DNA of 7,139 nt from a virus (Duplodnaviria; Heunggongvirae; Uroviricota; Caudoviricetes). The stretch is from IMG/VR virus record IMGVR_UViG_2541047945_000012, one strand, 5' to 3'. The position numbers and the translations under genes were made by a program. Below are positions 1,289 through 7,139 of this stretch, in pieces; the first letter of the stretch is position 1; the number at the start of each line of letters is the position of its first letter. The notes under the pieces were generated by a model. It made no database searches. It was given only the letters and a program-made list of their open reading frames with translations, and was not told the DNA's origin.

Positions 1289-1771
1289 CTATCTGGTCAG
1301 GGTGTCGTATTGTTTTTCGCAGACTCTTCCGGCTTCGGCTGCCCGGTCAGCATACTCTGCCAGTTGTCTGTTTCTCTCGAGAGATTTGCTGAGCACGTCG
1401 GCAAGCAAAACTCCGGTGTCTGCGGCTGACGTCCCAGCGCCGACAATGGCGTTATACTGCCTGAGCTGCTCACGGATGGCAAAGAGTTGTTGCTGCAACC
1501 GGCCAGCGCGAGCGGCAGCATCAAGAGCATCATTGCGCGCCTGGTCGATCCTCTGCTGCGCTTCACGTTCATTGATCGATTTCTCCTGTTCGTAGTGCTG
1601 ACGAACTATCTCATCTTCAGCTTTGCGGTCTTCCTTCGCCTGCGCATACCCGGCATCGTACTGACGACTGCCGTGTGCATTCCAGGCTACAACTCCTGAT
1701 ATGACCAGAACAGCAAGCATCGCCATGATAACCAACTGTTTCCAGTATGCTTTTGCGAATGCCCAGATCAT
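1289..1771 (-). CDS. Rz-like i-spanin (inner-membrane spanin subunit)
   Basis: ATG at 1771..1769 overlaps the endolysin stop (ATGA, 1768-1771); SD AGGTG 8 nt upstream; TAG at 1291..1289; 160 aa. N-terminal TM ([21 protein letters not shown]) followed by a charged, Gln/Arg/Glu/Ala-rich predicted coiled coil and a C-terminal Cys. Classic position after the endolysin. Confidence 0.85.
1297..1572 (-). CDS. Rz1-like o-spanin (outer-membrane lipoprotein), fully embedded in the +1 frame of Rz
   Basis: ATG at 1572..1570 with SD AGGAGA 9 nt upstream; 91 aa. Signal peptide [26 protein letters not shown] with lipobox LAGC. Mature part about 65 aa, Pro-rich (8 Pro) with two Cys. Stops 8 nt before the Rz stop. 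Confidence 0.8.
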   Translation of the reverse strand: MNVKRSRGSTRRAMMLLMLPLALAGCSNNSLPSVSSSGSITPLSALGRQPQTPEFCLPTCSANLSRETDNWQSMLTGQPKPEESAKNNTTP

Positions 1772-2397
1772 ACCGCCAGCACCTTACTGGCAGTTATGTA
1801 TCGCGCGCGCCGGTCATCAATGCCGTTCCGGCCACCATTGATAAGCAGAGTTACACGTGCAATATCTCCGGTATACTTCATGCAGCCTTTGCTGGAGAAG
1901 AACCACGCCGCGCTACGAGCCGCGTATTCGTCCTGCGCCAGCAGTTCAGGACTCTCCAGCAGGTCAACCTTAAGACCGTTTCCACAGTCACGATAGTTAT
2001 TCAAACCGGTAATCTGGATAAGTCCGCGCCCACGGTAGTTCCAGCCGTCACCAGGGGCATTGTTCCCCATGCGTTTGCTGTACACCAGATTGGCGATCGC
2101 TCGCTGGCGCTCGAGTGGCAATGGTGGCTCACCAGCACGTCGCCCCAGTGCATTAGCCTGCCCCTGAGTGAGACGCCCAGCCCGAACGAAGTTAGCCAGT
2201 CCGCTGACGCTGTAGTTGAAATTCTCCTGCAACCGGGTGAAGCCCACAGACTCATGCCCGACCTGAGCAATAAACATTGCCAGATCTTCTGGTTTGCTGA
2301 TACCAAACTCTTTCATCGCAGAAGTTATATGCGAGAACCAGCGTGCGGCCAGCGCCTCGCTAATACCAGCAGCTCGCTGGAATTGTTTAATCTCCAT
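1768..2397 (-). CDS. Endolysin, glycoside hydrolase family 19 (chitinase-fold lysozyme), cytoplasmic (no signal or SAR segment)
   Basis: ATG at 2397..2395 with SD GAGG 8 nt upstream; TGA at 1770..1768; 209 aa ([13 protein letters not shown]...). The ORF-track start at 2562 is an upstream extension without an RBS. Contains GH19-type catalytic motifs [10 protein letters not shown] and GRGLIQITG (compare plant chitinase HETG and RGPIQ(I/L)S motifs, from memory). Confidence 0.85.
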
Positions 2398-2695
2398 GTT
2401 TAGACCTCGATATTTTGAAAATCTGAACAACGTTACCGCGTGTTTTAATAACCGCGGCAAGCATGACAGCGTTGATAATGACCTCAGATAAATCCACAGC
2501 CATTGGCGTGCGTAACCAGATTGCATAAGCGACACGAACTGGAATGCTGGCCGCAGCAACAATCAGGAAATAAGCAAGCCACCCACCCCATCGCCTGTGT
2601 TGAGAACCGTTTCTCCGAAATGTGGCAACTCGAACTGCTATACCGGCGCAAATAACCGCATTGGTGATAAGCAAAAAAAGCTCATGAGTTACCAT
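2387..2695 (-). CDS. Small membrane protein between holin and endolysin (2-3 TM; candidate antiholin, second holin or lysis regulator)
   Basis: ATG at 2695..2693 with SD GGGGAG 8 nt upstream; TAA at 2389..2387; 102 aa. Overlaps the holin 3' end by 14 bp and the endolysin start by 11 bp, suggesting translational coupling. TM1 [16 protein letters not shown], a highly basic loop ([15 protein letters not shown]), TM2 [22 protein letters not shown], and a possible short third hydrophobic segment. Confidence 0.7.
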
Positions 2696-3086
2696 CGTCT
2701 TTTCTCCCCGGAATTAACTCGCGTGGATTATCGGAACGGTGATAGAGCCAGATCCCAATTCGCACAGCGACGATTGCTGACACAAATGCACCGGCAGAGA
2801 AAACAATCCCTTTCTCGAAAGAATCCTGTGTGATTGTAGGGATCAGGCTGGCTATGCCGATAAGAATTGATGCTGCTGGTTTGTAGAATAGAAGTCCGCA
2901 GAGAAAGCTAAGCATCGACAAGAGCACGCGACGACGAATGGGATACTCTACCGCAGAGGTAACAAAAATCACCGCCCCAGCCAAAGACCCCAAAGCAACC
3001 TCAGGAGGAACTCCTGCTATCACTGCCGCCAAAGAACTCATGCTAAGCCACTGATTTAAAGTTTCACTGGTTAGTTGAGCTGACAT
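2682..3086 (-). CDS. Holin, class-I-like (three TM segments, charged C-terminal tail)
   Basis: ATG at 3086..3084 (MSAQLTSETLNQW...), preceded by GGTGG with a 5-nt spacer; an in-frame GTG at 3095 is the ORF-track start. TGA at 2684..2682; about 134 aa. Three hydrophobic segments (LAAVIAGVPPEVALGSLAGAVIFV; VLLSMLSFLCGLLFY...ILIGIASLI; IVFSAGAFVSAIVAVRIGIWLY) and a charged tail [19 protein letters not shown]. First gene of the lysis cluster. Confidence 0.75.
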   Translation of the reverse strand: MSAQLTSETLNQWLSMSSLAAVIAGVPPEVALGSLAGAVIFVTSAVEYPIRRRVLLSMLSFLCGLLFYKPAASILIGIASLIPTITQDSFEKGIVFSAGAFVSAIVAVRIGIWLYHRSDNPRELIPGRKDDGNS

Positions 3087-3143
3087 GTTTTCCACCGTTT
3101 ATATGCATAACTACCTCCTGAACAGTAAAGCATTACGCATGAT

Positions 3144-3159
3144 AAACCATTTATGGTTT
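3144..3159. promoter_or_regulatory. Perfect 16-bp palindrome AAACCAT-TT-ATGGTTT just downstream of the putative promoter (candidate operator or 5'-UTR hairpin)
   Basis: 7-bp arms are exact reverse complements with a 2-bp centre. Starts about 12 bp downstream of the -10 hexamer, so it overlaps the predicted transcription start region of the lysis operon. Confidence 0.45.
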
Positions 3160-3170
3160 TTTGTTACCCA

Positions 3171-3199
3171 ATATTACCAATCCAATTCGCGATGGTCAA
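3171..3199 (-). promoter_or_regulatory. Candidate sigma70 promoter for the lysis operon: TTGACC - 17 nt - TAATAT, with TGn extended -10
   Basis: On the minus strand, -35 TTGACC (3199..3194), 17-nt spacer, -10 TAATAT (3176..3171) preceded by TGG. AT-rich upstream. Predicted start near 3164, about 78 nt upstream of the holin ATG. Confidence 0.45.
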
Positions 3200-3451
3200 A
3201 ACATATCCACAGCGGTAAGTTTGAGTGTTTTCATTTCCAAAACTTTATACAATAATATATGCAGTCTGTTATTTTTACGCACAATAAAAACACGATACCA
3301 GCTATTTCGCCATAAATACAATTTCCTTTAATGCTGCCAACAGTGCCTGCAAAACATATAACAGAACACATAAATAACAGGCATAATATAGATTTAATAA
3401 TCCAAGTGCATATAAATATCATTTAAGAAGTTAAGATCATTATTATAATAA

Positions 3452-3483
3452 CAATAACCCCGCTGTTTTATTCGGGGTTATTG
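3452..3483. terminator. Hairpin terminator downstream of the tail fibre gene
   Basis: Stem AACCCCG (3456-3462) / CGGGGTT (3473-3479), extendable to 11 bp, with a 10-nt loop. On the minus strand it is followed by a U-rich tract (TTATTATAATA). It begins 10 bp after the tail fibre stop (3493-3495). Confidence 0.5.
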
Positions 3484-3492
3484 CATTTATTA

Positions 3493-4029
3493 TTACATTG
3501 ACATTAATATAAACATGGCTAATTCGTCATAACGAATTCCGTAGCGTCCTCCTGCTTTTTTTACAAGAATCATATCTCCTGTTTTATATTGAGAATAAAT
3601 TTTCTCACCTGTATCAGGATCTGTGCTCTCTTCAGTTATCACCTCTTCATCCCATACGTCAGGCCATTCATCGTAACACCAAAAAGCATATTGCTCAGGG
3701 TTTAAACCATGCTTTCTAAGAATATCCCCTACGGTTTGAGCGCCAACGCCAAAATGATACCTGGACGACTCAATTCCTTTGTGATTAATTGAGTCATTAA
3801 ATTTAAATTTATAGATGACTGACTTTATTTCAATAGCGGCATCACGCTCTGCATTAAGAATATCATATCTTGTTTTAAGAGTTTCATCTGACGTATTGAT
3901 TGACCCGGTTCCTGCATAGATAACAGAGCATCTGTTTGATGGCTGTCCAATAGCTTTAACATTATCATCAACAGGAGCTATTTTATTAGCATCTGCCAAC
4001 CACCAGTCTGTTCCATCAGCGTGACCGAT
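3493..4029 (-). pseudogene. Tail fibre/tailspike gene, C-terminal fragment (distal to the IS2 insertion) including an intramolecular-chaperone-like domain
   Basis: In frame with fragment 5361-6914 once IS2 and one copy of the 5-bp duplication are removed. TAA at 3495..3493. Encodes ...GHADGTDWWLADANKIAPVDD...SINTSDETLKTRYDIL...GGRYGIRYDELAMFILMSM. The first 9 codons of ORF-track entry 3493..4056 are IS2-derived. Confidence 0.8.
4025..4029. repeat. IS2 target-site duplication, copy 1 (CCGAT)
   Basis: ccgat immediately flanks the IS2 end at 4030; identical to 5361-5365. Confidence 0.85.
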
Positions 4030-4040
4030 TGGATTTGCCC

Positions 4041-4946
4041 CTATATTTCCAGACATCTGTTATCACTTAACCCATTACAAGCCCGCTGCCGCAGATATTC
4101 CCGTGGCGAGCGATAACCCAGCGCACTATGCGGATGCCATTCGTTATAATGCTCGAACGCCTCTGCAAGGTTCTTTGCTGCCGTTAACCCGTCTGGTTTG
4201 GGCATGATACTGATGTAGTCACGCTTTATCGTTTTCACGAAGCTCTCTGCTATTCCGTTACTCTCCGGACTCCGCACCGCCGTGTTCTTCGGTTCAAGTC
4301 CCAACATCCGGGCGAACTGGCGTGTTTCATTAGCCCGGTAGCATGAACCATTATCCGTCAGCCACTCCACTGGAGACGACGGAAGATCGTTGCCGAAGCG
4401 GCGTTCCACCGCTCCCAGCATGACGTCCTGTACTGTTTCACTGTTGAAGCCGCCGGTAGTGACCGCCCAGTGCAGTGCCTCACGATCACAGCAGTCCAGC
4501 GCGAACGTGACACGCAGTCTCTCTCCGTTATCACAGCAGAACTCGAACCCGTCAGAGCACCATCGCTGATTGCTTTCTTTCACGGCCACTCTGCCTGTAT
4601 GTGCCCGTTTCGATGGCGGTACAGCAGGTTTTCGCTCAAGCAACAGCGCATTCTGGCGCATGATCCGGTAAACACGTTTGGCATTGATCGCAGGCATACC
4701 ATCAAGTTCTGCCTGTCTGCGAAGCAGCGCCCATACCCGACGATAACCATACGTTGGCAGCTCTCCGATAACATGGTGTATACGGAGAAGCACATCCGTA
4801 TCATCAGTGTGACGACTGCGGCGGCCATCCATCCAGTCATCGGTTCGTCTGAGAATGACGTGCAACTGCGCACGCGACACCCGGAGACAACGGCTGACTA
4901 AGCTTACTCCCCATCCCCGGGCAATAAGGGCGCGTGCGCTATCCAC
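4041..4946 (-). CDS. insD: IS2 transposase OrfB (InsD; DDE catalytic domain), normally made as an OrfAB fusion by -1 frameshift
   Basis: 301-aa [37 protein letters not shown]...[11 protein letters not shown], recognised as IS2 InsD. Overlaps insC in the -1 frame at the A6G site. Confidence 0.9.
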
Positions 4947-5269
4947 TTTTTTGCCCGTCCATATTCAACGGCTTCTTTGAGGAGTTCATTTTCCATCGTT
5001 TTCTTGCCGAGCAGGCGCTGGAGTTCTTTAATCTGCTTCATGGCGGCAGCAAGTTCAGAGGCAGGAACAACCTGTTCTCCGGCGGCGACAGCAGTAAGAC
5101 TTCCTTCCTGGTATTGCTTACGCCAGAGAAATAACTGGCTGGCTGCTACACCATGTTGCCGGGCAACGAGGGAGACCGTCATCCCCGGTTCAAAGCTCTG
5201 CTGAACAATTGCGATCTTTTCCTGTGTGGTACGCCGTCTGCGTTTCTCCGGCCCTAAGACATCAATCAT
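4904..5269 (-). CDS. insC: IS2 OrfA (InsC; helix-turn-helix DNA-binding/regulatory protein)
   Basis: ATG at 5269..5267 with SD GGAG 5 nt upstream; 121 aa [41 protein letters not shown]... The ORF-track start at 5314 is an upstream extension. Confidence 0.9.
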
Positions 5270-5360
5270 CTGTTCTCCAATGACTAGTCTAAAAACTAGT
5301 ATTAAGACTATCACTTATTTAAGTGATATTGGTTGTCTGGAGATTCAGGGGGCCAGTCTA

Positions 5361-5365
5361 CCGAT
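5361..5365. repeat. IS2 target-site duplication, copy 2 (CCGAT)
   Basis: ccgat immediately after the IS2 end at 5360; identical to 4025-4029. Confidence 0.85.
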
Positions 5366-6914
5366 TCTTACTCTTATCCCACTTCTAATATTTAAACTTC
5401 CAGTATTACTCTGTAAATTACAATCTCCTGAAGTTGGTCCAAGCAGTACAGTTTTACCAACACCACATACTACTCTGGCATTTCCTTTTTGTGATACGAG
5501 TCTTGACTCACCTCCTGACTGCTCAGGAAGAGATTTATGGTCTACAAATGCATCGCGGGGGTTAAATACACCGTCTCCAGAATTATATCTTCCTCCTGTA
5601 TAGTTGTTAAATACAGGACCCCAGTCAACGCCATTGCCTTCAGAGCACCCGACCATTCTAAGCACTCGAGTATTCCCTGCTGCATATGGTAATGAGCTTG
5701 TTGATTGCCTGGAAGCTATCATACGTGCTCCATAACCAATAGCATTACCACCATTTATAGTTACATATGCTGGCTGGCTTTCGAAATATGTACTGTAAAA
5801 GTTCATATTTCCACAGTCATGTAGATGAATAAGAACATCATCCCATCCCTGAATGGTTCCTGCATGTACCTGTACACCGCGAACTGGTTCCCCTGAAACC
5901 TCCATACACTCTGATGGCCGGCTGAATGGCTGAGACAGGTATTGCGATGTGGCAAGCAGATGTGTGTGGTGATACAGGCTGGTAATGTAGCAATCGAAAA
6001 ATTGCGTTCCCGCCATACCAAAGTTATCTATGTCATTTCGCCGTATAGTAGAACCTACTGTTGCCTCAGAAGCGTTAGACACTCCAGTAAATACTAACTT
6101 ATCACCGGATACGGATAATCCTGAATAAGTGAAATTCCTGCCTCCCGATCTTAAAACCCCGGACGTTTCGAAGGTGTGGCTTGATGACCATGGGATTTCG
6201 ATAGTGCTGGACGTTACCGCTGTAATTCGGAATACATCATGGGCGCGGATCGAAACACCCTTGAATCCCTGGAATCTACAGTGATAATAGTTTTCATCCT
6301 CGCCCTGAGCGGCCAGCGTGCCAGATACAGGAATGTTCGTTTTTAAAAGTGCCGTCTTGCGCCAGTATCCAACCACCTGCAAATTGCGGTATTCATTGCC
6401 AAAAGACGCACGTGACCAAATACCTACATCCCACTCATCGCCAAGACCGGTATTTGCAATGTCTTTATAACCATCCAGCCCATTGAAATATGGAACAATA
6501 CGAAAGTTCTCAAGGCGAACACATCCTGTCTCTGGCATCAATATTGCGGCAGAGAATGGTTTAAGCGTGGCTCTTGTAGCCCCATTAGCATCACCGTTAG
6601 TAAAATCCAATAAATCATATGATGACGCAGGTGCCGTTGTTGTATACGGGTCTTCGGAAGATGGATTAGAAACCACACCACCACTAACATCCATATTAGA
6701 AACACAATCTACAGTATATTTTTTATTTCCTACACCGTACATCAGGAATGTGGTCCCTGTGGTAATATCAGGAGCAAATGTTGCAGTATATCCAGAGACC
6801 CATTTGCCCACACCAAGACCAATTATCCCACCACCAGAAACAGGTGTTAACGTATCCGTTATTACATACGCATTATCAGTACCATAAATAACCTTTCCTG
6901 TGTTAATGGCAGCT
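5361..6914 (-). pseudogene. Tail fibre/tailspike gene, central fragment between the IS3-family element and IS2; 5' end missing
   Basis: Open frame of about 517 codons running from the IS3-family terminus (6915) to the IS2 terminus. Gly/Ser/Thr/Asn/Tyr-rich, as in receptor-binding fibre or spike bodies. No credible start codon or RBS inside the fragment, so the N-terminal part must lie beyond the IS element. Codons 1-61 of the 584-aa ORF-track entry are out-of-frame readthrough of the IS transposase. Confidence 0.7.
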
Positions 6915-7139
6915 TGAACCGCCCCGGGTTTCCTGGAGAGTATTTTATCTGTGAACTCAGGCTGCCAGATCATCGTTTCCGATGGAAGCATAATAAGCTT
7001 TTTCTGCTTCTGCCGGAGGAGTATGGCCCAGCCTTTCCAGCAATCGTCGATTGTTATACCAGTCCACCCACGTGAGTGTGGCCAGTTCCACTTCTGCACG
7101 GTTTTTCCAGCTCTTACGGTGTATTACCTCCGCTTTGTA
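6915..7139 (-). mobile_element. IS3-family insertion sequence (IS629/IS1203-like), partial; right end only, continuing beyond the window
   Basis: Terminal sequence on the plus strand from 6915: TGAACCGCCCCGGGTTTCCTGGAGAGTATTTTATCTGTGAACTCAGG, the TG...-type IS3-family end that I recall for IS629. It is followed by the transposase OrfB C-terminus. Exact IS identity not verified. Confidence 0.7.
6957..7139 (-). CDS. IS3-family transposase OrfB, C-terminal 60 codons (5'-truncated by window edge)
   Basis: Minus-strand translation ...YKAEVIHRKSWKNRAEVELATLTWVDWYNNRRLLERLGHTPPAEAEKAYYASIGNDDLAA-stop, with TGA at 6959..6957. This is a typical C-terminal tail of an IS3-family DDE transposase. Confidence 0.75.
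   Translation of the reverse strand, partial: YKAEVIHRKSWKNRAEVELATLTWVDWYNNRRLLERLGHTPPAEAEKAYYASIGNDDLAA

Follow-up and report, generated by a model that had tools for sequence, protein, structure and literature searches.

The window analysed here, a stretch of 7,139 nt, carries one end of an integrated prophage next to the Escherichia coli genes yfgH and yfgI. The spanin genes considered below lie at this end of the prophage, and the features of the chromosomal flank and of the lysis genes are as follows.

1-1071: E. coli yfgH and yfgI
1112-1139: terminator of yfgI
1289-1771, minus strand: Rz-type i-spanin gene, a 160-codon ORF (160 aa) with ATG start and TAG stop; Pfam DUF2514
1297-1572, minus strand: Rz1-type o-spanin gene, 91 codons (91-aa precursor) with ATG start and TGA stop, inside Rz in its +1 frame
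1495-1506, minus strand: lipobox L-A-G-C of Rz1
1495-1572, minus strand: signal peptide of Rz1 (residues 1-25) and lipobox Cys26, by the patterns PS00013 and G+LPPv2
1582-1587, minus strand: Shine-Dalgarno sequence AGGAGA of Rz1, 9 nt upstream of the ATG (1570-1572)
1682-1738, minus strand: codons of the Rz transmembrane segment (residues 12-30), by Kyte-Doolittle hydropathy
1768-2397, minus strand: endolysin of glycoside hydrolase family 19 (209 aa), PF00182 with E=4.5e-9, also by RefSeq and phiV10 annotation
2387-2695, minus strand: holin of the Phage_holin_3_7 family (102 aa), PF05449 with E=5.2e-27, phrog_217 holin
2682-3086, minus strand: second holin-like membrane protein, Phage_holin_8 (134 aa), PF16931 with E=1.5e-11, phrog_198 holin

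Homology to phage phiV10 begins at about 1162. The interval 1072-1288 contains the chromosome/prophage junction. As the attP region and the integrase come after Rz in both phiV10 and epsilon15, this junction corresponds to one of the two att ends of the prophage, whose integration site is downstream of yfgI; the other prophage end lies outside the window. In epsilon15/phiV10-like phages, the lysis cassette adjoins attP and the integrase, and therefore the cassette abuts the chromosome in the integrated prophage.

Along the minus strand, starting at 3086 and going down to 1289, the gene order is Phage_holin_8, Phage_holin_3_7, the GH19 endolysin and Rz/Rz1, each overlapping the next; in particular, the ATG of Rz overlaps the stop codon of the endolysin gene (ATGA). 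Rz and Rz1 are found directly downstream of the two holin-family genes and the endolysin, as spanin genes of a lysis cassette would be. This is the intact lysis cassette of an epsilon15/phiV10-like podophage (genus Uetakevirus) prophage beside E. coli yfgI. Among 5426 complete genomes, 452 contain at least 80% of the cassette.

An AT-rich gap (GC about 0.30) at 3096-3492 separates the cassette from the tailspike gene. At this position, phiV10 carries the O-acetyltransferase gene oac, and epsilon15 carries O-antigen conversion genes. The gap in the window holds only a very hydrophobic 63-aa ORF (3231-3422, minus strand) that has no PHROG match, and RefSeq annotates nothing in the gap; this ORF could encode a small seroconversion-type membrane protein or be nothing at all.

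The Rz product matches PF10721 (DUF2514) with E=1.5e-42 and 145.9 bits, the cut-off being 26, and the PHROG family phrog_312, 'Rz-like spanin', with E=2.1e-59. The maximum of its 19-residue Kyte-Doolittle profile, 2.37, falls on residues 12-30, and the same profile shows no further hydrophobic segment. Rz is predicted to have the single N-terminal transmembrane domain required of a type II inner-membrane i-spanin. The 11 residues ahead of this segment have a net charge of +2, and such a short positive N-terminus suggests the N-in/C-out orientation. A single-sequence AF2 model of Rz (mean pLDDT 85) consists of two long helices, residues 2-110 and 116-159, separated by a short Gly-rich break (GAGTS, residues 111-115), which is consistent with the two periplasmic helices and the linker expected in an i-spanin. 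The only Cys of Rz is C151.

As the initial annotation had claimed, a second gene at 1297-1572 occupies the +1 frame of Rz (1289-1771) and has an ATG and its own Shine-Dalgarno sequence, AGGAGA, at a distance of 9 nt; we locate the latter at 1582-1587. The Rz1 ORF begins 199 nt into Rz, and its TGA stands 8 nt before the TAG of Rz, so that Rz1 is wholly embedded. It takes up nt 200-475 of the 483-nt Rz gene, the distal 57%, starting at 0.41 and ending at 0.98 of the Rz length L. In the survey of Kongari et al. (2018; PMC6139136), approximately 70% of embedded o-spanins have their start within 0.4-0.5 L and their end within 0.9-1.0 L.

The lipoprotein signal peptide with an LAGC lipobox, also part of the initial annotation, was recovered by two patterns, PROSITE PS00013 and G+LPPv2, with the Cys at residue 26. 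The signal peptide is positively charged, with K/R in its n-region. Cys26, the residue to be lipidated, is followed by Ser at +2 and Asn at +3. As the Lol-avoidance Asp is absent from +2, Rz1 lacks a signal for inner-membrane retention, and its lipoprotein signal is of the outer-membrane type. The mature protein has 66 residues, with Ser and Thr making up 29%. It had been described as Pro-rich with two Cys: the two Cys besides the lipidated one are indeed present (C56 and C60), while the enrichment in Pro is only moderate (8 of 66 residues, 12%). Periplasmic Cys residues that could form intermolecular disulfides are predicted in both proteins, C151 in Rz and C56 and C60 in Rz1; Kongari et al. 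(2018; PMC6139136) report that, of 528 two-component spanins, 507 have at least one periplasmic Cys. Rz1 matches the PHROG family phrog_11621, 'Rz-like spanin', over residues 4-90 (E=1.6e-40). No Pfam family matched Rz1 at E≤0.01, and NCBIfam offered no curated model for either Rz or Rz1, its only hits being sub-threshold noise (MscM, VirB7).

Taken together with the comparisons below, these features lead us to conclude with high confidence that the region encodes an embedded-type two-component spanin, with which the lysis cassette of an epsilon15/phiV10-like prophage ends; the spanin function itself is assigned by analogy with lambda Rz/Rz1.

The state of the prophage bears on whether the pair is still in use. 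The tailspike gene, a single 2976-nt CDS in strain SBF22, is interrupted twice in the window.

3493-4030: C-terminal piece of the tailspike gene, Peptidase_S74 chaperone domain
4031-5359: IS2 copy inside the tailspike gene
5360-6916: middle piece of the tailspike gene
from 6917: second IS inside the tailspike gene, with the C-terminus of an IS3-family transposase at 6957-7091 (minus strand)

No complete E. coli RefSeq genome was found to share this double interruption of the tailspike gene at the yfgI site. The prophage can probably no longer produce infectious particles, though its lysis cassette is intact, and, given the two insertions, the cassette may have ceased to function in virion release here. 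The two IS elements, both lying within a gene that is continuous in SBF22, could be taken to mean that the spanin pair, while genuine by descent, is an inert relic, the prophage being defective and the cassette drifting. We consider this very unlikely. None of the five lysis genes is damaged, each is as long as its phiV10 counterpart, and the 2-kb cassette is 99.8% identical to that of same-site prophages in other E. coli strains, including those with an uninterrupted tailspike, so that no decay is visible in it; moreover, a prophage with an IS in a tail gene can still be induced and lyse its host. The relic reading also concerns the present use of the genes rather than their identity.

Conversely, the host might keep the cassette as a domesticated lysis module, for example, for the release of cell contents or vesicles by a subpopulation. 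Lysis-cassette-dependent toxin release has been described in Yersinia entomophaga. For the window, we regard such domestication as highly improbable, as the one observation speaking for it, that the cassette is intact, would be expected just as much from a recent arrival of the IS elements.

To return to the spanin pair and its identity, its relatives were examined in Escherichia, Salmonella, Klebsiella, Edwardsiella and Burkholderia phages. In all 80 IMG/VR loci with 90-100% Rz identity, which encode 46 distinct Rz1 proteins, the +1 frame is open from the MNVK start to the same stop, and the lipobox Cys is intact. Rz is 93% identical to the Rz of O157 typing phage 9, whose cassette DNA matches the window with the same identity and score as that of phiV10; between the Rz genes of the window and phiV10, the nucleotide identity is 95%. 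The Rz1 protein is 96% identical to that of phiV10, with which it shares a 90% cluster (YP_512285.1), and 86% identical to that of epsilon15, so the alignment with known Rz1 proteins, suggested in the initial annotation as a check, agreed with the assignment.

A further 11 phages are more diverged: Klebsiella ST11-OXA245phi3.2, SPN9TCW, HC8A, PAS61, Skate, VLCpiS13b, PAT1, Seszw_1, Edwardsiella eiAU-183, Burkholderia vB_PL1 and Klebsiella FBKp27. Eight of them align over the full Rz, at 79-86% identity for SPN9TCW and ST11-OXA245phi3.2 and at 37-54% for the other six, and three match only the C-terminal third. All 11 have a +1-frame lipoprotein ORF at the equivalent position. In the alignment of their Rz1 proteins, Cys26, C56 and C60 are invariant, and the lipobox Cys, a QP dipeptide and a C-x-P-x-C motif are completely or almost completely conserved. 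Conservation of the embedded frame in homologues, the other check named in the initial annotation, is thus seen in all 80 close relatives, in phiV10 and epsilon15, and in each of the 11 diverged phages. Neither of the findings that, according to the initial annotation, would have contradicted its reading, a missing embedded frame in close homologues or the lack of a lipobox prediction, was made. The embedded-spanin reading is also supported by phiV10 and epsilon15 having Rz1 annotated at the same relative coordinates.

Three of the diverged phages, PAS61, PAT1 and Seszw_1, are mosaics in which an Rz N-terminal half of one type is joined to a C-terminal half of another, and the mature Rz1 changes along with the latter. 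The switch occurs approximately at the lipobox Cys, and both QP and C-x-P-x-C persist in the two types of module. The parts of the two proteins that are expected to interact share their coding DNA and are therefore exchanged together, as a single module.

In Klebsiella phage vB_KpP_FBKp27 (583-1117), the homologous +1-frame lipoprotein ORF (IPALPKEARQPEKPSICLPTCSKNLSNETDSW) ends 25 nt past the annotated stop of the i-spanin, and therefore is technically 'overlapped' rather than 'embedded'. Its homology to the window Rz is limited to the C-terminal 47 residues of the latter. According to Kongari et al. (2018; PMC6139136), no spanin family mixes the embedded and overlapped architectures.

An open +1 frame may arise by chance in a gene like Rz, as the protein contains much Ala, Gln, Arg and Glu, and the codons of these residues seldom give rise to stops in the +1 frame; the frame could then be merely permitted by this composition with no protein made from it. 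We therefore considered null models holding the Rz protein fixed, with codons either shuffled synonymously within the gene or resampled from codon usage. A +1 ORF of at least 91 codons appeared in 16% of the synonymous shuffles and in 26% of the codon-usage resamplings. The initial annotation had pointed to both frames being open over 276 bp; the frame is open, but with 16-26% of recodings reaching 91 codons its length is weak evidence, and we dropped it as an argument for Rz1. Two further observations could be read in favour of a chance frame: in many relatives it is open further upstream, to 116-127 codons, with no conservation of the extension, and Rz1 is not called by PGAP in E. coli RefSeq genomes.

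A loose lipobox null, accepting any PS00013-type signal in the +1 or +2 frame, found some such signal in 5-11% of recodings. It was discarded as uninformative, because two of the three Rz1 codon positions stay unchanged in recodings. It was replaced by a codon-order permutation and a full-ORF criterion, under which the frame must open with a start codon, encode a signal made up of a K/R n-region, an h-region free of charge and a lipobox, continue for 40 residues or more beyond the Cys, and terminate within Rz. By this criterion, a complete lipoprotein ORF was obtained in 0.7% of the recodings when the window Rz was shuffled synonymously, and in 0.1% when its codon order was permuted. For six other diverged lineages, it was obtained in at most 0.8% of shuffles, yet all six carry one. 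The ORF is present in 7 of 7 lineages tested and in 91 of 91 homologues inspected. The occurrence of a complete lipoprotein ORF in the +1 frame of Rz exceeds chance.

The overlap offers a second line of evidence, as the third positions of Rz codons are the second positions of Rz1 codons. Diversity by codon position among close relatives was tried and rejected as a test of Rz1. Across 61 close genes, the diversity at third positions drops 2.2-fold, from 0.114 upstream to 0.051 in the overlap, but that at second positions falls 8-fold, and therefore constraint on Rz1 is inseparable from a stronger constraint on Rz in this test. For this reason, we turned to deep homologues and considered Rz codons that are conserved in amino acid and degenerate, comparing their third-base identity to the window within the overlap and before it. 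The identity was 71% in the overlap and 30% before it for HC8A (p=0.0016), 74% and 22% for VLCpiS13b (p=0.00017), and 64% and 32% for Seszw_1 (p=0.027). Sites synonymous in Rz thus appear to be constrained inside the Rz1 overlap, although more recent recombination of the C-terminal module could partly explain their higher identity there.

Besides the excess over the null models and the apparent constraint on Rz-synonymous sites, a chance frame would have to account for the invariance of the Shine-Dalgarno sequence, the ATG and the lipobox Cys, for the full-length match of Rz1 to a PHROG spanin family, and for the listing of the o-spanin by expert curation. We find this explanation extremely unlikely, and judging from sequence comparison a chance ORF is excluded.

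The start of Rz1 deserves a separate comment. In 48 of the 80 close relatives, the +1 frame is open for 25-36 codons further upstream of the conserved MNVK start (Rz nt 91-199), and upstream ATGs yield mechanical ORFs of 116-127 codons; the extensions vary and are strongly basic, and a stop closes the frame there in the window. A gene caller that picks the longest ORF would be misled by them as to the start of Rz1. A start at an internal Met (M14 or M15) instead of 1572, giving a signal peptide with no charged n-region, has a practically negligible chance of being correct: in-frame ATGs do occur at 1533 and 1530, and a PAS61-type relative apparently uses a short signal, MWRVLMLSMLMPLLTAC, but no SD-like sequence precedes either ATG, the ATG at 1572 and its Shine-Dalgarno sequence ((A/G)GGAGA, in the window AGGAGA) are kept in 62 of 62 distinct close homologues with only the spacer between them (9 nt in the window) varying, the K/R-rich n-region is conserved while a signal lacking K/R fails the lipoprotein rules, and the long form is the one annotated in phiV10, epsilon15 and SPN9TCW.

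For the two-component spanin, a mode of action may be proposed based on the abstracts of PMC5295617 and PMC6139136 and on general knowledge of Rz/Rz1 (Young laboratory). Rz1 would be translated from its own Shine-Dalgarno sequence and ATG in the +1 frame of Rz. Following the lambda paradigm, Rz would be anchored in the inner membrane and expose its helical domain to the periplasm, while Rz1, after lipidation at Cys26 and cleavage, would be transported by Lol to the outer membrane and reside in its inner leaflet. Rz and Rz1 would then associate through their C-terminal parts, and the resulting complexes would bridge the periplasm across the peptidoglycan mesh, which holds them in check; disulfides via C151 of Rz and/or C56/C60 of Rz1 probably stabilise these complexes. 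Once the holin triggers and the GH19 endolysin destroys the peptidoglycan, the complexes would be free to collapse, and the collapse would fuse the inner and outer membranes, removing the last barrier to phage release. The shared DNA would keep the interacting segments, the C-terminal helix of Rz and the mature Rz1, inherited together. Essentially all experimental work on spanins concerns lambda (Kongari et al., 2018; PMC6139136), and our search of the literature found no published experiments on spanins of the Bcep176 type (see below), including those of the SPN1S or epsilon15 type.

The pair in the window is already known: it is annotated in phiV10 and epsilon15 and catalogued by Kongari et al. 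(2018; PMC6139136). As the exact pair has been annotated and catalogued, it adds nothing new to spanin biology. Its practical value lies in annotation, since the NCBI pipeline omits Rz1. In E. coli genomes, PGAP/RefSeq labels Rz a 'DUF2514 domain-containing protein' and omits Rz1 (e.g., L003, 6142-6624), and we found no literature linking 'DUF2514' with 'spanin'. The 90% cluster of Rz1 has 23 members, and that of Rz has 1903. The latter contains 209-aa GH19 endolysins in addition to the 160-aa DUF2514 proteins, probably an artefact that arose in clustering from gene calls that overlap or were fused. The pair can also serve as a clean positive control for methods detecting embedded genes: the length of the open frame alone is a poor criterion, and the lipoprotein signal and comparative constraint are decisive.

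Among known systems, the closest are phiV10 gp30/gp30a (YP_512284/YP_512285) and epsilon15 gp26/Rz1 (NP_848234/YP_850992, annotated as p06 and p07), both orthologous to the window pair. In phiV10, the annotation comprises PhiV10p30 (483 nt) and p30a (276 nt), the latter with a 'predicted signal peptidase II cleavage/lipid attachment site'. The relative coordinates in phiV10, epsilon15 and SPN9TCW are identical to those in the window, with 276 nt embedded in 483 nt, beginning at nt 200 and ending 8 nt early. The window shares with phiV10 and epsilon15 the LAGC lipobox, the cassette order, the gene lengths and the place beside attP, and differs from them by a few substitutions and in that its cassette belongs to a prophage integrated by yfgI with an IS-interrupted tailspike.

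These phages are listed, both for i-spanins and o-spanins, in the embedded 'Bcep176' family, which includes epsilon15, phiV10, TL-2011b, SPN1S and SPN9TCW, and also SPC32H/N, eiAU-183 and BcepC6B (Kongari et al., 2018; PMC6139136). By sequence, the window pair is assigned to the same family, with an Rz of DUF2514/phrog_312 and an Rz1 of phrog_11621.

Skatevirus-type and related siphophages (Salmonella Skate gp18/gp19, Klebsiella VLCpiS13b, Escherichia HC8A) have a C-terminal Rz module and a mature Rz1 homologous to those of the window. Their Rz is 63-67% identical to the window Rz in the overlap and about 30% identical in the N-terminal third. The Rz1 proteins share QPQxPEFCLxxCSANLSKExDNWQ with that of the window, and all are embedded in the +1 frame. 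Unlike the cassette in the window, the cassettes of these phages have an endolysin of the lambda/P2 type and another gene order.

Like the window pair, lambda Rz/Rz1 consists of a type II inner-membrane protein with two periplasmic helices and an outer-membrane lipoprotein embedded in its +1 frame; in both, the lipoprotein starts at about 0.4 of the gene length, periplasmic Cys are present, and the two genes are the last of the lysis cassette. The mechanism proposed for the window pair is likewise that of lambda. As neither Rz nor Rz1 matched the lambda families in Pfam (PF03245 Phage_lysis and the Rz1 family) at E≤0.01, the window pair is best described as an analogue, not a detectable homologue, of lambda Rz/Rz1. 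The mature Rz1 of lambda is shorter and richer in Pro (40 aa with 10 Pro, 25%, compared to 66 aa with 12% Pro in the window). Lambda has two Cys in Rz and one in Rz1, whereas the window has one in Rz and two in Rz1, the latter in the C-x-P-x-C motif, and hence the disulfide arrangement probably differs from that of lambda.

Finally, LysB/LysC of P2 (overlapped) and PseT.3/PseT.2 of T4 (separated) belong to the same functional class as the window pair, an i-spanin with a lipoprotein o-spanin. In P2 and T4, however, the o-spanin genes extend past the i-spanin gene or stand separate from it, whereas the o-spanin gene in the window is fully embedded.
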